Source: an archaeon GW2011_AR20
GTDB lineage: Archaea > Nanobdellota > Nanobdellia > SCGC-AAA011-G17 > GW2011-AR20
Reading direction: 5' to 3'
DNA: 64,000 nucleotides
Assembly: GCA_000830315.1 (NCBI GenBank)
Contig: CP010426.1
Coordinates: 588,663-652,662, forward strand
Shown here: one piece after another, positions 3,279-63,566 of the stretch
Position numbering within the stretch: position 1 is the first letter of the stretch
How the letters are laid out: each line of letters opens with the position of its first letter
Program-made: the position numbers and the translations under genes
The notes under the pieces: generated by a model
Seen by the model: the letters and a program-made list of their open reading frames with translations, nothing else
The model's database searches: none
Told to the model about the DNA's origin: nothing

Positions 3279-4478
3279 TTATCTAAACCTTCTCCTATGA
3301 AAATCATTTCTTCTCTGTGACCTATTATCTCTTCTGAAATTTCTATTCTCGCTTCTTTCAACCCTGACCATCTGCACTTTGGGAAATTCAGGCAATTTTA
3401 ATTTTTTAACTATTAGGCTTCTGTCCTCCAAAACCCTTCTGAAATTATCATAATCTAATTCGCACAATAAAGAAATAACTTTTCCTTCATTTCCTGCCCT
3501 CGCAGTTCTTCCAATCCTGTGTATGTACTCATTTGAAGTTTTTGGAATATCATAATTAATAATATGAGTTACATTTTTAATATCCAAGCCGCGCGCAGCA
3601 ACATCGCTTGCAATCAAAACATCTGCTTTGCTGCCATGGAACATATCTATGGCCTGCTTTCTTCTGTTTTGGCTCATTCCGCCATGTAATTTTAAAGCTT
3701 TAATCCCGTTCGTGTATAAGTTTTTTGAAAGTATATCAACCATTCTTCTGGTTGCACAAAATATAATTGTTAACCCTTTTTCGTGTTTTAATAAATAAGC
3801 CAACAAAGAAAATTTATCTCTTGAAGGAACATCGTAATAATGCTGCACAAGCTTGCCTTCGTCAACATAAGACTTGACTTTTATCAACTCCGGGTTTTTC
3901 ATATAATTCTTTACAATATGGTGCACCTGGGATGAAATTGTAGCGCTAAAAAGCAGGGTTTGTCTGTTTTGCTTTAAATATGAGATTATTTTTTTTACGT
4001 CATCTATGAAGCCCATTTCAAACATTTTGTCTGCTTCATCCAAGACAAGAATATTAACCTTGTTTAAGATAATTGTTCTTCTCTGAATATGATCAAGAAT
4101 TCTTCCAGGCGTTCCGACAACGATTTCAGTATGTCTTAAACTATCTATCTGCGGATTAATTGAAACACCCCCGTAAACAGAAGTGATATTCATTTTCTTG
4201 TATTTTGAGAATTTATGCATCTCATTTGTAACCTGCACGCATAATTCCCTTGTTGGAACCAGGATTAGAACTTGAATTCCCTGCCCGTGTATTGTTTTTT
4301 CAATTATAGGAAGACCGAACACAGCAGTTTTTCCAGATCCGGTGCGGGACTGTGCAATTACGTCTTTTCCTTCCTGTATTTTTGGAATGCTTTTTTTTTG
4401 AATATCTGTCCATTCGGTAAATCCCAAATCATCTACAGCCTGGGCTATCTCCTGCTGCAAATGTATTCCTGTTATCAT
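3279..4478 (-). CDS. DEAD-box ATP-dependent RNA helicase
   Basis: Q-motif GFxxxTxIQ, Walker A SRTGSGKT, DEAD box (VLDEADKM), SAT, and HRIGRTARAG motif VI. Confidence 0.9.
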   Translation of the reverse strand: MITGIHLQQEIAQAVDDLGFTEWTDIQKKSIPKIQEGKDVIAQSRTGSGKTAVFGLPIIEKTIHGQGIQVLILVPTRELCVQVTNEMHKFSKYKKMNITSVYGGVSINPQIDSLRHTEIVVGTPGRILDHIQRRTIILNKVNILVLDEADKMFEMGFIDDVKKIISYLKQNRQTLLFSATISSQVHHIVKNYMKNPELIKVKSYVDEGKLVQHYYDVPSRDKFSLLAYLLKHEKGLTIIFCATRRMVDILSKNLYTNGIKALKLHGGMSQNRRKQAIDMFHGSKADVLIASDVAARGLDIKNVTHIINYDIPKTSNEYIHRIGRTARAGNEGKVISLLCELDYDNFRRVLEDRSLIVKKLKLPEFPKVQMVRVERSENRNFRRDNRSQRRNDFHRRRFR

Positions 4479-14559: not shown

Positions 14560-15261
14560 ATGGAAATTATACTGAATAAAAAGCCGAAAAATCCGAGACT
14601 TATAGAAGGATTTCCGGGATTTGGGTTTGTCAGCACAATTACCACTGAATTTTTAATAGAGCATTTAAACGCCAAACAAATAGGAAGAATAGAAAGCAAT
14701 CATATCATGCCGATGGTTGCAATGCATAATTCAAAATTGGTTGATCCGTTAGGAATTTTCTACGATCCTGCGCATAATCTTGTGATATTTCATGCAATAA
14801 CAAATGTGGCTGGATTAGAATGGGAATTGGCCGAAAAATTAAATGCCTTGGCAAAGGAATTAAAGGTTAAGGAGGTTATTAGCATAGAAGGAGTTGCCAG
14901 CAATAGCGAGGACCCAAGGGCTTTTTTCTACAGCAACATAAGCAAATCAACGGAGTTATTAAAGAAAATCAAGATAGAACCATTGAAAGAAGGAATAATA
15001 ATGGGCGTTACAGGAGCATTATTATTGAAATCAAAACTTCCGATGAGTGCTATTTTTGTCGAAACACATTCGCAATTGCCTGATTCAAGGGCTGCTGCAA
15101 AGGTAATCGAAGTTCTTGATAAATATCTTAATTTGAAAGTTGACTACAAACCATTACTTGAGAAAGCAGAGCAATTTGAATCTAAATTGAAAACACTGAT
15201 GCAGCAGAAAAACAAGGCAGAAGAAGAAAAAGACAAAAAAGAGCTCAGTTATTTTGGATGA
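14560..15261 (+). CDS. PAC2-family proteasome assembly chaperone-like protein
   Basis: The N-terminal EGFPGFGFVS motif is typical of archaeal PAC2/PbaA-like proteins. The C-terminal tail is acidic/Lys-rich. Confidence 0.55.
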   Translation: MEIILNKKPKNPRLIEGFPGFGFVSTITTEFLIEHLNAKQIGRIESNHIMPMVAMHNSKLVDPLGIFYDPAHNLVIFHAITNVAGLEWELAEKLNALAKELKVKEVISIEGVASNSEDPRAFFYSNISKSTELLKKIKIEPLKEGIIMGVTGALLLKSKLPMSAIFVETHSQLPDSRAAAKVIEVLDKYLNLKVDYKPLLEKAEQFESKLKTLMQQKNKAEEEKDKKELSYFG

Positions 15262-15583
15262 AATGGATTTAAGCAGAAAGAAATGTGTTGCATGCGAAGG
15301 CTGGATGAAGCCAATGCCTATGTTCTTAGTTAAAAAATACTTAAAAAAAGTTAAAAATTGGAAATTAAAAAAAAGAAAATTATACAAGGAATTTAAATTT
15401 AGGGATTTCAAAACAACATTAAAGTTTGTTAATAAAATCGGGTCAATAGCAGAGAAGGAAGGCCATCATCCAGATATTTATTTTACATGGGGCAAGTGCA
15501 GCATTGAGCTTTACACCCATGCTATAAAAGGATTAAGCGAGAATGATTTTATCTTGGCAGCCAAAATTAATAAGATTAAATAA
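15254..15583 (+). CDS. Pterin-4a-carbinolamine dehydratase (PCD/DCoH)
   Basis: The EGHHPDI...W signature of the PCD family. 109 aa. Confidence 0.8.
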   Translation: MDEMDLSRKKCVACEGWMKPMPMFLVKKYLKKVKNWKLKKRKLYKEFKFRDFKTTLKFVNKIGSIAEKEGHHPDIYFTWGKCSIELYTHAIKGLSENDFILAAKINKIK

Positions 15584-15584
15584 T

Positions 15585-16139
15585 TTATTTCTTAGAGTTC
15601 CTTAATAATCTGGCAGCAATAACCGCACTTATTAAATGGAATGCAGCCATAATGATGAATAACAGCTTAAAGCCAAAATAGCTTACAATCATTCCTCCTA
15701 AAAATGCCGCAATCGAGATAGCCAATCCTGTTCCCATGTTCCAATAGCTCCATTCGCTGCTTTCTTTTCCCTTATCCAATGCCAATGAATAAAGGGCTTC
15801 CCATGCAGGCGCTACTATCGCAACACCAATTCCCATCAAAATTTGCACTAAATATAAATGCAATGCTCTTTGAACAAATAAGAATAATAAATTACCAATT
15901 ATGAGGATTAAATACCCGATAAAGACTGTTTCTTCTTTATTAAATTTCGTATCTTCTAATTTGCCAATGAATGTTGTAAGCAATGCGAACACAGCTGTAT
16001 AAATTGCAAATGAAATGCTCGCAACCATGACATTTCCCCCGATATTCTGCACAAACAATGCATAAATTGGCCCAAGTAAGCCAGAAGAAAAATTACCGAA
16101 GACACTTGCATACAATAATAGCTTTAATTTGATATTCAT
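15585..16139 (-). CDS. MFS-like six-TM membrane protein (half-size, possibly truncated transporter)
   Basis: 184 aa, six hydrophobic segments, MFS-like composition. Confidence 0.4.
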   Translation of the reverse strand: MNIKLKLLLYASVFGNFSSGLLGPIYALFVQNIGGNVMVASISFAIYTAVFALLTTFIGKLEDTKFNKEETVFIGYLILIIGNLLFLFVQRALHLYLVQILMGIGVAIVAPAWEALYSLALDKGKESSEWSYWNMGTGLAISIAAFLGGMIVSYFGFKLLFIIMAAFHLISAVIAARLLRNSKK

Positions 16140-16242: not shown

Positions 16243-18831
16243 ATGAAAACCAAAGAGCATAAACCCGGCATGGAGTTGGTTAAAAAATATGAAAAAAGAC
16301 TTCAGTTAATAAGGGATGAGAGCTCTAAAATTATTGTCGGCCAGGAGCAGGTGATTAATTCTTTATTGCGCGCTTTATTATGCGATGGTCATGTTTTACT
16401 TGAGGGAATCCCAGGAATTGCAAAGACGTTAATCGTACGTACGTTAGCTAAAGTTACAGGATGCGATTACTCAAGAATACAGTTTACAGCTGATTTACTG
16501 CCGACAGATCTGGTTGGATTAACAACTTATATCAAGGAAAAAAATGAATTTCGGGTAAACAAGGGTCCTGTATTTGCAAATTTTGTAATAGCAGATGAAA
16601 TAAACAGGAGTCCTCCAAAATGCGTTTTAGGGGATACAGAAATTTTAACAGCGAACGGGTCTTTAATTAATATTGAGAACATATTCAGCGAATATAGGGG
16701 AGATTTAGCTTCAAGGGAAGATAATGAAGAATTTTACACCTTAAATAAAGAGATTTATATAATGTCTTTTGACCCCAAAGATAAGAAAATAAAACCTAAA
16801 AAAGTTAAATATCTTTATAGACAATTAACCAACCAGCCTTATTATGAAATTATATTAAAATCCGGCAGAAGCATTAAAACCTCGAATATACACCCTTTCT
16901 TTAGTATAAAAGACGGATATATTTATAATTTGAGGGCTAATGAGTTAAAAATTAATGATTGCGTTTTGACTCCAAAAAACATTAGATTGGAAACTAATGA
17001 TAAGATAGAGTATAACGAGGGGGTGATGAAAGAGGTTAAGGTTGCCAAAGAAGAAATTTTTAAAAGGCAGAAGCTATACAATGAAGTTCAAAAATTAAAG
17101 AATAAAAAAATAAATTATATAAAGAATACCCTCGGTTTAGATAACAAATATGCTAATCTAGCTAAGTCATACCTTAAAAGAAAACCCAAGTACATTGATA
17201 TGAAAACAGATGAAAACTCTTTTATAATGTTGCCAAAAAATTATGGTGTTATAAATAAAATTAATATGCCTTCAGAAACTAATAAAGAGCTCATGCACTT
17301 CTTTGCTTTATTGATTTCAGAGGGAAATCAAAAAAATGGAAAATTTTATTTGTCGATGAGGGATAAAAATTTAGTTGAGTATTTTATAAAATTATTAAAA
17401 GAATTATTTAATATAAATACAAGATATTACATCGACAAAAGAAATGGCCAGTATAGGGTATCCTTAAGTTCCAAGCCATTAGAGAAATTAATTTATGCAA
17501 TGAATTATAAAATTAATTCAAATGCCAAAAATAAAGATATTCCAAATTTTATCATGAAAGCGAGTAATGAAAATGTTAAGGAATTTTTAAAAATGTATTA
17601 TGAAGGTGATGGCGGTGTTAGCAGGGATTGCGTAAAAGTCACAAGCAAAAGCAAAATGGTAGCAAATAAACTTAGCTATTTATTGCTAAGATTTGGTTTA
17701 ATAGCCAGAATAAGTTATGAATACAGCAAAAACAATGAAGGGTTTGGTGATTATTATTATAACCTGAGGTTTTACGGGAATGACTTAAATCTTTTTAGAG
17801 AAAAAATGGGGTTTATTTCTGAGGATAAAAATAGCAAACTAGAACAATGCTGCGGGAATGTATCCCTAAATAAAAATGATACTATCCCATTTATCCATTC
17901 TAAAATAAGAGAATTGAGAAAAAATAATAATATTACACATAGAGAATTTTATGAAGCAACTAGAATGCATGCTCATAATATTGAAAATCCTAATAACAGA
18001 TTTGGAATAAGTAGGTATTCTCTAAATTTAATTTGTAATTCATTAAATGGTTTTGAAGAGATTAAGGAAATTATTTTGGGAGATTTTTACTGTGATTATG
18101 TTAAATCAATTAATATCATCTATCCGGAAAAAGATTATTACTTATATGACTTTACAATTGAAGATACACATTCTTTTGTAGCGGGTTTTGGAGGAATAAT
18201 TTCACATAATACCCAATCAGCTTTATTAGAGGCAATGCAGGAACGCCAGGTAACTATTGGAACTAAAACTTATCCTTTGCCTGATCCATTTTTTGTCATG
18301 GCAACTCAGAATCCCATTGAAAGCTCAGGTGTTTACCCGTTGCCAGAAGCTCAGATTGACAGGTTTTTATTCAAGACAAAAATTGTTTATCCAAAACTGA
18401 ATGAAGAAAATGAAATTCTTAAGAAAAATATAACATTGCAGAGATTTGAAGAGATTAAACTAGAGAAAGTGACAAATCAAAACGAATTGATTCAGATGCA
18501 GGACTTCGTAAAGAAGATTTACTTGAGCAAGGAAGTTGAGAATTATGTCATCAGATTAGTTGATGCTACAAGAAATCCGGGCAAATATAAGATTAATTCT
18601 GGTAAATATATTGAATGGGGTGCATCTCCAAGAGGAAGCATTGGCTTGTATATAGCGGGAAAGGCAGAAGCATTAATTCAGGGAAGCAATTTTGTTACCC
18701 CCGTTAATATTAAAACTGTTGCGCATGATGTTTTGCGCCACAGGTTATTACTGAATTATGAAGGGCAGGCTGAGAACATAAAAACAGATGATATCATAAC
18801 CGAAGTTTTGGAAAAAGTTCCTATTCCTTAA
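16243..18831 (+). CDS. MoxR-family AAA+ ATPase interrupted by a 530-aa intein
   Basis: Extein: Walker A GIPGIAKT, Walker B/sensor block ADEINRSPPK | TQSALLEAMQE. This block is contiguous in uninterrupted MoxR proteins. Confidence 0.9.
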   Translation: MKTKEHKPGMELVKKYEKRLQLIRDESSKIIVGQEQVINSLLRALLCDGHVLLEGIPGIAKTLIVRTLAKVTGCDYSRIQFTADLLPTDLVGLTTYIKEKNEFRVNKGPVFANFVIADEINRSPPKCVLGDTEILTANGSLINIENIFSEYRGDLASREDNEEFYTLNKEIYIMSFDPKDKKIKPKKVKYLYRQLTNQPYYEIILKSGRSIKTSNIHPFFSIKDGYIYNLRANELKINDCVLTPKNIRLETNDKIEYNEGVMKEVKVAKEEIFKRQKLYNEVQKLKNKKINYIKNTLGLDNKYANLAKSYLKRKPKYIDMKTDENSFIMLPKNYGVINKINMPSETNKELMHFFALLISEGNQKNGKFYLSMRDKNLVEYFIKLLKELFNINTRYYIDKRNGQYRVSLSSKPLEKLIYAMNYKINSNAKNKDIPNFIMKASNENVKEFLKMYYEGDGGVSRDCVKVTSKSKMVANKLSYLLLRFGLIARISYEYSKNNEGFGDYYYNLRFYGNDLNLFREKMGFISEDKNSKLEQCCGNVSLNKNDTIPFIHSKIRELRKNNNITHREFYEATRMHAHNIENPNNRFGISRYSLNLICNSLNGFEEIKEIILGDFYCDYVKSINIIYPEKDYYLYDFTIEDTHSFVAGFGGIISHNTQSALLEAMQERQVTIGTKTYPLPDPFFVMATQNPIESSGVYPLPEAQIDRFLFKTKIVYPKLNEENEILKKNITLQRFEEIKLEKVTNQNELIQMQDFVKKIYLSKEVENYVIRLVDATRNPGKYKINSGKYIEWGASPRGSIGLYIAGKAEALIQGSNFVTPVNIKTVAHDVLRHRLLLNYEGQAENIKTDDIITEVLEKVPIP
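16621..18210 (+). other. Intein with a LAGLIDADG homing endonuclease domain inside moxR
   Basis: Begins with Cys (CVLGDTEI), ends in SHN followed by Thr +1. Internal motifs FALLISEGN and YYEGDGG. The flanking extein sequence is seamless. Confidence 0.8.
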
Positions 18832-18832
18832 A

Positions 18833-19726
18833 ATGCCCAAGAAATTCTTCAAAGTTGATTTAGTGCCTGCATTAAGAAGGCTTGAGATGCTTTCTAAGAG
18901 TTTAACTACATCAAGGGTTGTAGGTGCTTACAGGAGCGTTTTTAAGGGGAAGGGTCTGGAGTTTAGCGGTTATCGCGAGTATACTTCAGAAGACGACGCT
19001 AACTTAATTGACTGGAAAGCTAGTGCAAGAACAAATGAAATCCTGCTTAAGGAATACAGTGAAGAGCGTGAGATAGATGTTTTTTTCCTGATTGATTCAA
19101 GCTCGAATATGCTGTTCGGAAGCACGCAGAAGTTAAAGGCAGAATATATAATTGAGTTAACAGCATCGTTAAGTCATGCTATTTTAGAAGCCGGAGACAA
19201 TGTTGGAATGGCACTTTATACAGACAAGGCCAAGTCACCTTTAATCCCTTCTCGTGGAAAAACTCAATTCTATCAAATTTCAAAAGTTTTACTCAATGTA
19301 GAAAATTACGGCGGCAATTTTGATTTGAAAGATGCGGCCAAATTTATTTTCAATTACCTGAAGAAGAACGCAGTTATAATTATAATTTCTGATCTTCTTG
19401 GCTGGAAAGATGAATGGGAAGATGTAATGGAAACATTAAATACAAGATTTGATGTTATCTGCATAATGGTCCGCGACCCCAGGGATAAGACCTTGCCGGT
19501 TGATGTCGGAGAAGTTGTGATTCAGGATCCTAAAACAGGCAAGACATTATTAATTGAGCCAGAATTAATCAAGCATTCTTACGAAAGTATAGTTAAGGAA
19601 CAGGAGGAAAAAATTAAAAAAACTTTATTTAAGGCAAATGTGGACTTTGTTGATATTACAACAGACGAATCTTTTGTTAAACCAATATTAAACTTATTCT
19701 TGAGGAGAGCGAAAAGATGGCGTTAA
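18833..19726 (+). CDS. DUF58-family protein (MoxR-associated)
   Basis: Signature GYREYTSEDDANLIDWKASAR. Adjacent to moxR with a 1-nt spacer. Confidence 0.85.
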   Translation: MPKKFFKVDLVPALRRLEMLSKSLTTSRVVGAYRSVFKGKGLEFSGYREYTSEDDANLIDWKASARTNEILLKEYSEEREIDVFFLIDSSSNMLFGSTQKLKAEYIIELTASLSHAILEAGDNVGMALYTDKAKSPLIPSRGKTQFYQISKVLLNVENYGGNFDLKDAAKFIFNYLKKNAVIIIISDLLGWKDEWEDVMETLNTRFDVICIMVRDPRDKTLPVDVGEVVIQDPKTGKTLLIEPELIKHSYESIVKEQEEKIKKTLFKANVDFVDITTDESFVKPILNLFLRRAKRWR

Positions 19727-20646
19727 CATTCACTGATCCAGAATACTTGTGGTTTTTATTAGTTATCCCATTGCTTGTAATTGCACATTTTGCCAGTTTA
19801 AGATCAACAAAAAGAAAGGCATTGAAATTTGCCAACTTCGAGGCCATAGAAAGGGTAACTGGGGGGGAGATCTTATCAAAGAACCTAAGCTTATTAATTA
19901 TTAGGCTGACGATTGTTGTTTTGTTTGTATTAGCTTTGTCTGGCACAACTTACTGGTACTCTGGCCCAGGAAGCGATTTTGATTTTGTATTGGCAATAGA
20001 TGCCTCGAGCAGCATGCTTTCAGCTGATTTCACCCCAAACAGAATAGAAGCTGCTAAAATAAGGGCAGAAGAATTTATTGATTTGATTTCTCCAAGCAGC
20101 AAAGTAGGAGTGTTAAGTTTTGCAGGTACGTCAATAATAGAACAGAGGCCAACAGAGAGTTTTTCAGAAGTTAAAAAGGCCATAAGAAATATTGAAGCAA
20201 GGAACATTGGGGGAACAGATATCGGGGAAGCGATTGTTACGAGTTCTAATTTATTTACAAATCCTGAAAGGGCAGGGGTAATTGTTTTATTGACAGACGG
20301 GCAGAGCAATGTTGGAGTAAAATTACAGGATGCCTTGGATTACATCAGAGACAAATCAGTCATAATTTACAGCATTGGAATTGCTACTGAAGCAGGGGGC
20401 AGTTATCTTGGAAATGTTTCCCTGAAGCTGGATGAGGAAAATTTAAGGTTAATTGCAGAGAATACAGAAGGAAAATACTTCATAGCAAAGGATGTGCAAT
20501 CTCTGCGTGAAACATACGAGCAAATTGCCAAAATTACAGAGACAAGAATTAAAAGAGAATTGTCCTTAACCTTCTTCGTTATTTCTTTGGTTTTAGTTTT
20601 GATAGAGTGGGTAATGATAAACACGAAATACAGAACAATACCTTAA
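19717..20646 (+). CDS. von Willebrand factor A domain protein, BatA-like
   Basis: N-terminal TM pair, MIDAS motif (DASSSM ... GGTDIGEAI ... TDG), C-terminal TM. Overlaps the DUF58 stop. Confidence 0.8.
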   Translation: MALTFTDPEYLWFLLVIPLLVIAHFASLRSTKRKALKFANFEAIERVTGGEILSKNLSLLIIRLTIVVLFVLALSGTTYWYSGPGSDFDFVLAIDASSSMLSADFTPNRIEAAKIRAEEFIDLISPSSKVGVLSFAGTSIIEQRPTESFSEVKKAIRNIEARNIGGTDIGEAIVTSSNLFTNPERAGVIVLLTDGQSNVGVKLQDALDYIRDKSVIIYSIGIATEAGGSYLGNVSLKLDEENLRLIAENTEGKYFIAKDVQSLRETYEQIAKITETRIKRELSLTFFVISLVLVLIEWVMINTKYRTIP

Positions 20647-59960: not shown

Positions 59961-62900
59961 TTATCTTATTCTAATAGCTTCCAAATTCTTCGGGGCATTT
60001 GTCTCTATCCTGAACATCTTATGCAAATTACTTGCTAAATCAAGGCAATTAGAATTATCCCCATGCAATAAAATTATTCTTTTCGGTTTTGGATTTAAAT
60101 GCCTGACAAATGATATCAATCTTTCTCTCGTGCTATGTCCTGTAAATCCCCTGATGGCTGCAATCTCCATCTTCAGAGAAATCTGTTTTCCGTCCAAGTT
60201 GAATTCTTTTTCGCCTTCCATTACTCTTCTTCCTAAACTTCCCCTGCCCAGGTAACTTGAAAATATCAATGAGTTTTTTGGATTATCTGATAATTCCTTG
60301 AAATATTCTACTGATGCTCCTCCAACCAGCATTCCGGAAGTCGCTAGAATAATGCAGGGACCAGATTGAATAACTTCCTGCATCTCCTGCCTTGATCCGA
60401 CCCTTTTAAAAACTTCATTCAAGAACGGATTTTGGTCTTTATGAAAAACCATCTTTCTTATGTTTGAATTAAAGAAATCAGGATATGCTGTATGTATTGC
60501 TGTAATATCCCAAACTGTTCCCTGCACGTAAACCGGAATTTTATCAAGCATTCCATTCCTGATCATTTTATCAATTATGACCATTATTTCCTGAGCTCTT
60601 CCTGTTCCCAAGACAGGCATCAAAACCTTTCCCCCTCTTTCAATTGTTTTTTTGATTGTATCAACTAAAATATCTTCTGCCTCTCTTCTGCTGGGGTAAT
60701 TTTCATTGCTTCCGCCGTAAGTTGCTTCCATTATCATTGTCTCTAATCTTGAGAATCTTGTCATAGCCGCGCTTAATAAATTACTTGTCTCATAATTCAT
60801 GTCCCCTGTATAAAGAATATTATGCAGCCCGTTTCCAATATTCAAATGAACCATTGCGCTTCCCAATGTATGTCCTGCATCATAAAATGTAATTCTAATG
60901 TCGGGGGTAATGTCAGTAACCTCATCATATTCTAATGTTATGGAATGCTTGACCATCTCTTTTATATCTGCACTTCCAAAAATTACCTTGCGGTTTTCTT
61001 TCTGGCTTACACTTATGTAATCAAGTGCCATTAAAGCTGCTATATCAAGTCCAGGCTCTGTATAATACACCGGTCCTTTAAAACCCATTTTATACAAGTA
61101 AGGGACAAATGCAGAGTTATGAACAACAACCCCATTAGCTACGAAATTTTGATTAGGTTCTACTTCTATATCAACCAAATAAGGATAAGGATTTTCTTTT
61201 TTCTCTATTTTTGTAATCTTTTGCCATATAACAGGCATTTCAACTAATTTTTTTAATTTATTAATATTATCTTGAGTTTTTAAGATTTTTATTTCTATCA
61301 GTTCATTTAATTTCTTATTCATCATTTCATAATATTTATCTTTTATATCAAAAACTTCCCTATTTTGAACGATTCCATAAGTAGTTTCAATCATTTGAGC
61401 AATATCTTTTCTAGGTAAAGAAATAGATTTTCTTTTTTTAGATATAGAAGAATTATTTTTCTCTTTTAAGTAAGTTAATCTTTCTTCAAGAAGTTCAATT
61501 AATTTATTAATGGTATTTTTATCTGCATAACTATTTCCTTTTCTTCTATACCGATCTAATAAAGCCGCTGGAAAATCGCTTATTTTAAATTCTTTATGGA
61601 CTTTTCCTAAAAATCCCGCATCCATTAAAATTTCTTTTAATTTAATTGAGGAAATAGGAATTATTTCTTTTAAATTCGTATCTCTCAATTTATTAACCAA
61701 GTTTTCTAATTTTAATTTTTTATCAATATGATTAAATCCAATTAAATTATAATACCTTTTAATAGAGTATGAAGAAGCTATATTAACAACCTTGTTTTTA
61801 TAATTTATATTGGATAATATCCCTAGTGTTGATAACATATGTTGTAGTGTTTCTAAAATTTTTTCTTGAGACGATGAAATTGATATGCAATTGTTTACAG
61901 AGCCTTCTGCATCGGCAATTCCTCTTAAAAATGCCCTTATAATATTATTTGAGCTAAAGATAATCTTTTCTGAGATATCTCTTTTTTTATTTTTTCCTAA
62001 AATTCCCTTAAAATTATCTTCAAAAAACTTCACAATGCCCGCATTATTTATTTCAATTATATGAGCATTTTTAGATTTATCCGGATGGTGTTTTAAAATA
62101 GGATCATAATTGAATATATTTTTTATTATATTTTTATATTCTTTTAAACAATCTGTTGACTGGTCAGTTATCCTAAATGTTCTTTCGCTTGCTAGTCCGC
62201 CGTCTCCAGTCATATATCCGGCCACTTGAGCCAATTCTTCATTAATATATTTAGGATAAACTGTCTTATTTATATTATACTTAGCCGCAAAATCATTAAA
62301 ATCAATTCCATAGAATCCTAAAATCTCTTTTAAAGTATTAATGTAAATATGCTTGTTCTTATTTTCCAGGTCAGAAATCAAATTTGTATGTTTTTTCAAA
62401 TGACTTACAATATAATCTTGAGTCCAATTCCTCTCTTTTCTTATAATTTTTAGTTTTTCAACTGCTTCTTGAGGTAATTCCAATCTTTCAAAATATTCCG
62501 GTTCTTTAAGTTCAATTCTTTTAAACTCATTTTCCTGTCCCATGTAACAAGGAATAACCATTCCTTCTCTTAAATTTTCAGCAGTGACTTCTTTAATTTC
62601 TAAATCTTTATCAATAACAAAAAATTTATGGTTTCTAGAAGATCCAATTGTATAATAAGATGTTTTAATTTTATAAATTTCTTTATGCTTTGTATTTTTC
62701 TTATAATTACATTTACCAATAACTCTCTTTCCAGTCTTCCAATCAATTCCAATTAATTTATCCCCTACTTTTATATCATCTATGGGCTTTATAGTTCCAT
62801 TTTCCAAATAAACGGGTGTATTTGGTGGTAAACAATGGTCAGCGTGCGCATGCGTAACAATAATAGCATCTAATTTGTTAATGTCAAATTCAGGGGCGTC

Positions 62901-63566
62901 CAGCATTGGATAAGAATCCTCTGGGTTATCTGCAGCAACATCTACTCCGCAGTCAAGCAATATTCTTGATTCAGGCGTCTGCAATAACAGGCATGATCTT
63001 CCTACCTGCCTTCCTGCCCCAAGAAAACTGATTCTGATCCATTCGTCTTTTTTCTCGTTTGTCCATCCGCCGTAAATTCTTTCACCGACCTTATTCAGGA
63101 ATTTTTTTCTGTAATCATTATGCTCGTATAAAACATCCCTTATTTTGTCTGTGATCTGGGATTTAATCGGGGGAGTTCTCCTGACTAAAGGAATCCAGAA
63201 TGTTTTTCTCTTTATTTCTTTTAATATATCCCCTGATTTTCCAATAGCTAACCCGGGCTTGCTGGCTTCTATTATAACCTTGCTTCTTGAAATATCAAAT
63301 ATGACGTTCGCCAAGCCAGCTTCTTCAGGAATTAATTTTTTAATCTCATTTTCTGCTTTTTCCTCTTCCATTAATAAGCTTTCATGAGGCCTTAACTCAA
63401 TTCTTTTTTTAACAGCTTCTACAATTGTTTTAATAACCTCGGAATTGTCCAAGAAAAATTCCTTGCTCTTGGTATAAAGAATAATATTTGCTCCTTCAAA
63501 TCCAGATTCAACTATGTTTGCGTTCTCTGGTACATACTTTAATACTTCTTTCAAAATTTCATTCAT
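59961..63566 (-). CDS. aCPSF1/FttA (KH-KH-metallo-beta-lactamase-beta-CASP RNA endonuclease) interrupted by an intein of about 573 aa
   Basis: N-terminal KH domains. The MBL motif THAHADH is immediately followed by the intein. The C-extein carries the beta-CASP and MBL motifs (GHTLGSA, ATYGG, LLHGD). Confidence 0.9.
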   Translation of the reverse strand: MNEILKEVLKYVPENANIVESGFEGANIILYTKSKEFFLDNSEVIKTIVEAVKKRIELRPHESLLMEEEKAENEIKKLIPEEAGLANVIFDISRSKVIIEASKPGLAIGKSGDILKEIKRKTFWIPLVRRTPPIKSQITDKIRDVLYEHNDYRKKFLNKVGERIYGGWTNEKKDEWIRISFLGAGRQVGRSCLLLQTPESRILLDCGVDVAADNPEDSYPMLDAPEFDINKLDAIIVTHAHADHCLPPNTPVYLENGTIKPIDDIKVGDKLIGIDWKTGKRVIGKCNYKKNTKHKEIYKIKTSYYTIGSSRNHKFFVIDKDLEIKEVTAENLREGMVIPCYMGQENEFKRIELKEPEYFERLELPQEAVEKLKIIRKERNWTQDYIVSHLKKHTNLISDLENKNKHIYINTLKEILGFYGIDFNDFAAKYNINKTVYPKYINEELAQVAGYMTGDGGLASERTFRITDQSTDCLKEYKNIIKNIFNYDPILKHHPDKSKNAHIIEINNAGIVKFFEDNFKGILGKNKKRDISEKIIFSSNNIIRAFLRGIADAEGSVNNCISISSSQEKILETLQHMLSTLGILSNINYKNKVVNIASSYSIKRYYNLIGFNHIDKKLKLENLVNKLRDTNLKEIIPISSIKLKEILMDAGFLGKVHKEFKISDFPAALLDRYRRKGNSYADKNTINKLIELLEERLTYLKEKNNSSISKKRKSISLPRKDIAQMIETTYGIVQNREVFDIKDKYYEMMNKKLNELIEIKILKTQDNINKLKKLVEMPVIWQKITKIEKKENPYPYLVDIEVEPNQNFVANGVVVHNSAFVPYLYKMGFKGPVYYTEPGLDIAALMALDYISVSQKENRKVIFGSADIKEMVKHSITLEYDEVTDITPDIRITFYDAGHTLGSAMVHLNIGNGLHNILYTGDMNYETSNLLSAAMTRFSRLETMIMEATYGGSNENYPSRREAEDILVDTIKKTIERGGKVLMPVLGTGRAQEIMVIIDKMIRNGMLDKIPVYVQGTVWDITAIHTAYPDFFNSNIRKMVFHKDQNPFLNEVFKRVGSRQEMQEVIQSGPCIILATSGMLVGGASVEYFKELSDNPKNSLIFSSYLGRGSLGRRVMEGEKEFNLDGKQISLKMEIAAIRGFTGHSTRERLISFVRHLNPKPKRIILLHGDNSNCLDLASNLHKMFRIETNAPKNLEAIRIR
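61116..62834 (-). other. Intein with a LAGLIDADG-type homing endonuclease inside aCPSF1
   Basis: Starts with Cys right after HAHADH and ends in VVHN with Ser +1. Internal motifs VAGYMTGDGG and LRGIADAEGS. Coordinates are from frame arithmetic, +/-3 nt. Confidence 0.75.

Follow-up and report, generated by a model that had tools for sequence, protein, structure and literature searches.

In a 64,000-nucleotide (nt) stretch of the archaeal genome GW2011_AR20 (contig CP010426.1; hereafter the window, to which all coordinates refer unless stated otherwise), the gene for a MoxR AAA+ ATPase is interrupted in frame by a 530-amino-acid (aa) insert. This insert is, with high confidence, a genuine full-length class-1 intein, in which a HINT splicing domain encloses a two-motif LAGLIDADG homing endonuclease (HEN) and two helical accessory regions. 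The organism is reported to be a member of Woesearchaeota (Castelle et al., 2015), as the names of homologous metagenome-assembled genomes (MAGs) also suggest. The open reading frame (ORF) at 16243-18831 of the forward strand encodes 862 aa. The last residue of the N-extein string ADEINRSPPK is aa 126, and TQSALLEAMQE begins with aa 657, such that the insert occupies aa 127-656 (nt 16621-18210). It begins with CVLGDTEI, ends with GGIISHN, and is followed by Thr at the +1 position. The original prediction, which was made from the sequence alone, had placed the insert correctly to the base, including its length and the split between these two extein strings, and the Cys start, the His-Asn end, and the following Thr that it described are all seen in the translation.

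The flanks of the insert match the AAA_3 family (PF07726, E = 3.8e-56), with a split at profile position 78 (aa 50-127 of the 862-aa ORF are covered by positions 1-78), and the AAA_lid_2 family (PF17863, E = 2.6e-15). Once the insert is removed, the protein has an AAA_3 core with Walker A, Walker B, and sensor 1 followed by AAA_lid_2, and its gene has DUF58 and VWA neighbors, which places it in the MoxR family. The conceptually spliced 332-aa protein aligns end-to-end and without gaps to the solved MoxR structure 2R44 from Cytophaga hutchinsonii (E = 5e-97), with ADEVNRSPAKVQSALLECMQE contiguous. The window gene would need protein splicing to yield such a protein. The exteins had been expected to rejoin into the Walker B/sensor block of MoxR. 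The rejoining itself stands, and is gapless also against an intein-free homolog with 94% identity (P0066), but the insertion site is inside neither Walker B nor sensor 1. It lies seven residues past the Walker B Glu, and sensor 1 (ATQNP) follows about 35 residues later, so the AAA+ core of the precursor would be interrupted.

Comparisons with intein and HEN profiles gave matches above the cut-offs in both Pfam and NCBIfam. In Pfam, the insert matches Intein_splicing (E = 7e-20, 71.8 bits, cut-off 35.8) and, in two stretches, LAGLIDADG_3 (E = 1.3e-16, 61 bits, cut-off 22.5). In NCBIfam, intein aa 1-94 match intein_Nterm (TIGR01445, E = 5.8e-14) and aa 507-530 match intein_Cterm (TIGR01443, E = 4e-6), and partial matches were found to the intein portions of models for intein-containing RpoA'', Tes, RFC, DnaB, V-ATPase A, PolII, and GyrA. 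Among sequences of the PDB, phmmer retrieved PI-PkoII (E = 1.4e-19), the Pho and Tli VMA inteins, and the TFIIB, CDC21, KlbA, and RadA mini-inteins. Both LAGLIDADG-like motifs named by the original prediction (FALLISEGN and YYEGDGG) are present, and each falls within a predicted helix (H222-234 and H316-330, respectively) of the structural model described below. No further copy of the MoxR intein was found when phmmer was run against every window ORF of 80 aa or longer.

An AlphaFold2 model of the intein, built on 29 homologs, has a mean predicted local distance difference test (pLDDT) score of 91.9 with no segment below 50, and a predicted template modeling (pTM) score of 0.91. The HEN core is modeled in the order alpha-beta-beta-alpha-beta-beta-alpha, twice. 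When the model was compared with the PDB by Foldseek, the best matches were all inteins or LAGLIDADG enzymes, comprising the TliVMA/PhoVMA inteins (7qss, E = 2.6e-28; 7qst), PI-PkoII (2cw7, E = 5.9e-26), PI-PfuI (1dq3, E = 4e-22), and PI-SceI. For 7qss, 7qst, 2cw7, and 1dq3, the target-normalized template modeling (TM) scores are 0.63-0.81. These inteins share with the MoxR intein a HINT domain, a two-motif LAGLIDADG enzyme, accessory domains, and the Cys1...His-Asn ends, but they are only 17-20% identical to it in sequence and reside in V-ATPase A, DNA polymerase, and ribonucleotide reductase (RNR). In addition, the MoxR intein has a 76-aa Lys-rich helical linker and a 90-aa helical domain, which may or may not be equivalent to the 'stirrup' or DRR domains. 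The HINT lobes match mini-inteins (root-mean-square deviation 1.6-3.0 across about 120-130 columns), full-size inteins are matched at E<=1e-22, and the nuclease core matches I-DmoI and I-Tsp061I (target-normalized TM 0.6-0.66) as well as the HEN domain of PI-PfuI. For the helical domain (Table 1), Pfam matches to the helix-turn-helix (HTH) families HTH_26 and HTH_3 are below threshold (E = 0.03-0.1) and were obtained for 2-3 of 9 members; a firm HTH assignment was dropped, and the domain is described here as possibly HTH-type.

Table 1. Coordinates of the MoxR gene, the parts of its intein, and the downstream genes in the window (aa numbers within the intein count from Cys1).
Feature	Coordinates	Strand	Content or basis
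MoxR N-extein, aa 1-126 of the ORF	16243-16620	+	Walker A GIPGIAKT, Walker B VIADE, ...DEINRSPPK; aligned to 2R44
Whole intein, 530 aa, Cys1...His529-Asn530	16621-18210	+	Pfam/NCBIfam, AlphaFold2, Foldseek, absence in syntenic orthologs
HINT N-terminal lobe, aa 1-122	16621-16986	+	TIGR01445; all-beta in model; block A CVLGDT
Block B GRSIKTSNIHPFF	16864-16902	+	Within HINT N-terminal lobe
Lys-rich helical linker, aa 123-198	16987-17214	+	Helices H133-158, 164-171, 175-186; no family match; putative linker role
LAGLIDADG HEN core, aa 199-397	17215-17811	+	LAGLIDADG_3, model fold, Foldseek
LAGLIDADG motif 1 ELMHFFALLISEG	17290-17328	+	FALLISEGN, aa 227-236
LAGLIDADG motif 2 EFLKMYYEGDGG	17581-17616	+	YYEGDGG, aa 326-332
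Helical accessory domain, aa 398-487	17812-18081	+	Six helices in model; possibly HTH-type DNA-binding
HINT C-terminal lobe, aa 488-530	18082-18210	+	TIGR01443; block F YLYDFxxxxxHSF, block G GGIISHN
MoxR C-extein, aa 657-862 of the ORF	18211-18831	+	TQSALLEAMQE, sensor 1 ATQNP, Arg finger region DRF, AAA_lid_2
DUF58 gene, MoxR operon partner	18833-19726	+	PF01882, E = 8.5e-47
BatA/VWA gene, operon partner	19717-20646	+	PF07584, PF00092, PF13519

The splicing blocks A, B, F, and G are all present in an alignment of 30 inteins that share this MoxR insertion site and are 43-98% identical to the window copy. In all 30 sequences, Cys1, Thr6, and Gly13 of block A are invariant, as are G82, R83, S88-x-x-H91, P92, F93, and F94 of block B. 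In block F, D510 is invariant and H517 is found in 29 of the 30, while block G has H529-N530 throughout, with Thr at +1 in all. The acidic residues of the two LAGLIDADG motifs, E234 (...LISEG) and D330 (...YYEGDG), are likewise invariant (30/30). All residues predicted to serve canonical class-1 splicing and a two-metal LAGLIDADG active site are therefore present and may support working chemistry. Cys1, block B, blocks F and G, the HINT fold, and an in-frame insertion that orthologs lack characterize the element as a class 1 intein; two helices that end in an acidic residue and a pseudo-dimeric fold in the model characterize its nuclease as a single-chain LAGLIDADG enzyme. The accessory domain has invariant residues as well (H440, F443, N453, E455, N456, S464, and R465).

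Among intein-free orthologs the insert is precisely missing and the host gene is contiguous. A search with the spliced extein identified such orthologs at 94% (P0066), 87% (P0067), 86%, 83%, and 82% identity, all with lengths of 331-350 aa. Between the gene of P0066 (locus L001) and the spliced window gene, the alignment covers 999 nt without gaps at 91.1% nucleotide identity, and both genes lie in a MoxR-DUF58-VWA operon. In another pair, which has 99% extein identity, one gene carries the intein (L009; P0003) and the other lacks it (L019; P0071). The DNA alignment of this pair is interrupted precisely at the intein ends, with nt 1395-2981 of L009 having no counterpart in L019. The empty site in L001 or L019 reads ...GAAATAAACAGGAGTCCTCCAAAA/ACACAAAGTGCTTTACTGGAAGCAATGCAG... 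(here and below, a slash marks a junction). Within the clade that includes the window, all five intein-bearing exteins have an intein-free nearest neighbor (95%, 99%, 91%, 88%, and 84% identity). This sporadic distribution of filled and empty alleles is the pattern that would be expected of a homing element.

Two further ideas about the insertion site were considered. Target-site immunity or co-conversion was proposed from synonymous differences that cluster just 3' of the junction, at codons +3 and +6, where filled alleles have TCN (Ser) and TTR/ATH and three empty alleles have AGT and CTN; this idea was dropped because four more empty alleles (L021-L024) also have TCN and TTA. A co-conversion tract was rejected because the differences between L001 and the window extein, in a sliding count, do not peak clearly at the junction. 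The divergence between these two is simply greater throughout the N-extein half.

Based on a comparison with P0003, the ratio of nonsynonymous to synonymous substitution rates (dN/dS) is 0.07 for the intein, 0.13 for the HEN core, and 0.07 for the extein. Mean pairwise identities are 0.57 for the N-terminal HINT lobe, 0.38 for the linker, 0.53 and 0.65 for the HEN halves, 0.51 for the accessory domain, 0.72 for the C-terminal HINT lobe, and 0.61 for the extein core. The linker is the least conserved part of the intein and the C-terminal HINT lobe the most conserved. Since the HEN has a low dN/dS and an identity comparable to that of the extein, the nuclease is under purifying selection and is not decaying. 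A comparison with a 99%-identical haplotype (L008; P0001) revealed a mosaic pattern. The two differ at 29 positions over 4.6 kb. All but one of these (28) lie within nt 16918-17046, inside the intein, and the extein is identical. This 129-bp patch has 78% identity between the two haplotypes and includes nine amino acid changes. It is best read as recombination or gene conversion from a diverged intein variant. Alternatively, and less interestingly, it may be explained by strain mixing during assembly.

Taken together with the established chemistry of such elements, these features suggest the following course of events. The 862-aa precursor would be translated, and Cys1 would carry out an N-S acyl shift at the Lys126-Cys bond. 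The resulting thioester would be attacked by the hydroxyl group of the +1 Thr to give a branched intermediate, and cyclization of Asn530, assisted by His529, would free the intein. An O-N shift would then produce a Lys-Thr peptide bond and a normal 332-aa MoxR, which presumably acts with the products of the DUF58 and VWA genes downstream. For homing, the freed intein would cut across the ...CCT CCA AAA/ACN CAA... junction in MoxR alleles that lack an intein, and repair from an intein-bearing copy would insert the element. Such homing would explain the patchy presence of the intein among near-identical hosts in the Woesearchaeota, Pacearchaeota, and Nanoarchaeota MAGs.

Several points weigh against this interpretation of an intein that both splices and homes. 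Protein splicing and DNA cleavage themselves are inferred. In block B, the consensus Thr is replaced by Ser (S88-N-I-H91, in 30/30, aligned to ITSGH of PI-PkoII), although this variant is probably tolerated, given that S88 is invariant in the family and T87 is adjacent. The GC content is 27.6% in the intein, 36.5% in the extein, and 31.7% in the window; a value 9 points under that of the host gene could reflect foreign origin, but it could also stem from relaxed codon constraints or a Lys/Asn-rich composition. Among the alleles compared, no target-site difference separates empty from filled ones, so there is no direct sign of immunity or recent co-conversion. Finally, the pairwise identities of intein and extein are correlated (Spearman 0.56), which suggests that vertical descent dominates at longer distances and that homing is not necessarily ongoing in this lineage. 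Regarding base composition, the GC minimum within the intein (23-25%) is located around 17300-17600 and 17900-18200.

The correlation between intein and extein identities is also what would be expected if the intein splices but no longer homes, being inherited vertically and becoming patchy through occasional precise deletions. Such a history agrees with the single coherent clade that these inteins form, confined to this one MoxR site in DPANN archaea, and homing requires DNA transfer between cells, which is not known to have been characterized in these organisms. However, a dead nuclease is expected to decay, whereas the HEN is conserved to the same degree as the host ATPase at a dN/dS of 0.13, and its catalytic acidic residues and LAGLIDADG helices are invariant. 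Moreover, filled and empty alleles coexist at 95-99% extein identity in at least three separate pairs, and the mosaic patch points to recombination inside the intein. We consider loss of homing unlikely on balance, albeit the most serious of the alternatives.

Much less probable is that the intein has been domesticated as a conditional switch, with splicing cued by, for example, redox state gating MoxR activity and selection at the host level keeping the element in place. The insertion splits the AAA+ core, and the precursor should hence be inactive. The intein is conserved to the same degree as its host, it has three near-invariant cysteines besides Cys1 (C114, C337, and C491), and conditional splicing is documented in other inteins (e.g., PMC5238726 and PMC6195587). 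On the other hand, the closest orthologs do well without the intein, and a regulatory role would not need an intact endonuclease. The broader proposal that MoxR inteins in DPANN archaea are retained as redox- or stress-responsive switches that gate the assembly of a MoxR-DUF58-VWA chaperone is only marginally less improbable. If true, such a role would account both for the conservation of a 530-aa element to the same degree as its host, across about 45% sequence divergence, and for the occupation of a second site within the same ATPase core. In a weaker form of this proposal, the alleles with and without the intein at 95-99% extein identity would provide a natural marker for gene flow among uncultured DPANN cells.

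It is extremely improbable that the insert is a lineage-specific insertion that does not splice, a HINT domain of the bacterial intein-like (BIL) or Hedgehog type, the remnant of a degenerated intein, or a chimera produced in metagenomic assembly; no support for this was found beyond the Ser in block B and the low-complexity Lys-rich linker, whereas neither the intact splicing blocks A, B, F, and G nor the +1 nucleophile vary in the family, the intein boundaries match the gap in the orthologs exactly, and the identical protein has been recovered dozens of times, on independent contigs and in several samples (37 contigs of up to 829 kb, and 53 index blocks), which argues against an assembly artifact. 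It is well established that BIL domains have neither HEN inserts nor a strict +1 nucleophile context; they occur at variable, non-conserved positions of their hosts and often lack a +1 nucleophile. The presence of a HEN, the conserved-motif site, and the invariant +1 Thr thus indicate that the insert is not a BIL domain.

Inteins at precisely the same MoxR site (hereafter site a; DE[IV]NRxxxK/C...HN/T[QH]) were found in at least 29 clusters at 90% identity by database search, in which the members that have a name are labeled Candidatus Pacearchaeota, Nanoarchaeota, or 'archaeon'. Nine more loci, all with the intein at MoxR site a, came from scanning the species representatives of GTDB for this pattern. 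They belong to Woesearchaeota, Pacearchaeota, and Nanoarchaeota MAGs and to two short contigs binned as bacterial (L013, Dojkabacteria; L015, Bacteroidetes), which are probably mis-binned. In L013 (JAFCCB010000045.1), an 11-aa tandem duplication (TQSALIEGMQE-TQSALIEGMQE) directly follows the intein around nt 3976-4040 of the locus, and stop codons are present in the N-extein frame upstream of nt 2200; a pseudogene or an assembly error is possible.

The window protein is recorded as AJF62876.1 / MBS3160845.1, 'ATPase associated with various cellular activity AAA_3 [archaeon GW2011_AR20]'. GenBank names these proteins 'AAA_3 ATPase' or 'AAA family ATPase' with a length of 862 aa and does not mention an intein, although the mature product would have 332 aa. 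The precomputed Pfam annotation of site-a proteins already flags the intein domains. Several other MoxR homologs are long as well. P0033-P0051 and P0198-P0209 have 450-680 aa, and many DPANN homologs that lack the site-a intein have N-terminal extensions of 150-420 aa with no Pfam annotation. P0196 (916 aa, with four matched stretches) was rejected as an intein host, as it consists of two MoxR copies fused in tandem and contains no intein. Its N-terminal region is FHA-like by eye only.

A second MoxR site (site b), located past sensor 1, is occupied by inteins that start with Ser1 (ATQNPxExxG/S...GINHN/TYPLPEAQ). Carriers include P0031, P0032, P0213, P0222, P0226, P0265, P0273, P0290, P0325, and P0332, as well as locus L017. 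These inteins span at least eight clusters at 50% identity and range from about 300 to about 600 aa in size. They share the host family, the HINT and LAGLIDADG domains, and the +1 Thr with the site-a inteins, but differ in having Ser1 instead of Cys1, in their position, and in their sequences (about 25% identity to the site-a intein). In L017, from a Nanoarchaeota MAG (JAHJRB010000048.1), both sites are filled in one gene. The site-b inteins and this doubly occupied gene indicate that MoxR is a recurrent intein host in archaea. Some of the site-b hosts have very acidic, halophile-like exteins.

Outside of MoxR, the closest relatives in sequence are inteins in the P-loop (GxxGxGK/T) of a TIP49/RuvBL-like protein (P0052), HerA (P0055), and an Lhr-type helicase (P0060), with 23-29% identity over the full length (E = 1e-72 to 3e-21). 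They share the junction with the MoxR intein, namely Lys at -1, Cys1, the terminal HN, and Thr or Ser at +1. However, the P-loop inteins sit in Walker A, whereas the MoxR intein sits after Walker B, in ...SPPK/TQ.... One may speculate that the MoxR allele arose through an ectopic jump from a P-loop site. Inteins close to Walker B are also described for other AAA+ proteins in the survey of prokaryotic inteins, with site a of PolIII gamma just after Walker B and sites d and e of MCM around it (Novikova et al., 2016, PMC4760082). These resemble the MoxR intein in their location in the AAA+ core, but their hosts belong to the replisome, whereas MoxR is chaperone-like. According to the same survey, inteins generally cluster in ATP-binding motifs (Novikova et al., 2016, PMC4760082).

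The original prediction had also suggested that MoxR was not a cataloged intein host. This holds insofar as no description was found in the full-text literature, but the allele is not rare and is recognizable from the Pfam annotation. Searches for MoxR, COG0714, AAA_3, methanol dehydrogenase regulator, DPANN, or Woesearchaeota in combination with intein gave nothing relevant in the full-text literature, in which InBase is not covered. MoxR is not known to be listed in InBase, which serves as a lead only. MoxR and intein co-occur only in phage papers that name the two terms separately (confirmed in one). In the main text of the survey of prokaryotic inteins, MoxR is unmentioned and is not among the top 15 hosts (Novikova et al., 2016, PMC4760082).

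Regarding the genomic neighborhood, the gene order Pterin-4a / MFS / MoxR / DUF58 / BatA-VWA is common to the window and the intein-free loci L003-L005 and L019. In L003 and L005, a 600-aa ORF without a Pfam match is located between the Pterin-4a and MFS genes, which in the window (15254-16139) are adjacent and lack this ORF. The window contains a second intein, with 573 aa (61116-62834, reverse strand), inside the ORF of an aCPSF1/FttA beta-CASP ribonuclease (59961-63566, reverse strand). It is inserted directly past motif 2 of the metallo-beta-lactamase domain (THAHADH/CLPPNT...GVVVHN/SAF) and matches Intein_splicing (E = 4.9e-20), LAGLIDADG_3 (E = 7e-16), and HTH_19 (E = 1.6e-7). This FttA intein belongs to a different lineage and was not detected by phmmer with the MoxR intein as query.

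The element itself is a standard bifunctional intein. What is new is the host gene and site, the spread among DPANN archaea, the polymorphism of filled and empty alleles, and the second occupied site in MoxR. Inteins favor ATPase motifs and archaeal genomes are intein-rich; for these reasons, and with the FttA intein in the same window, the MoxR intein is unsurprising to a specialist, and the current understanding of inteins is unchanged by it. With its Lys/Thr junction and a LAGLIDADG nuclease that is intact as judged from its sequence, this intein is a candidate reagent. MoxR adds a chaperone-like AAA+ ATPase as a host outside the set of replication, repair, and nucleotide-metabolism proteins, and its two independent sites, one following Walker B and the other following sensor 1, again support the view that inteins target the active-site motifs of ATPases. 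Finally, the filled and empty alleles in near-identical Woesearchaeota, together with an FttA intein within the same 64 kb, could mark DNA exchange in uncultured, host-dependent DPANN archaea.

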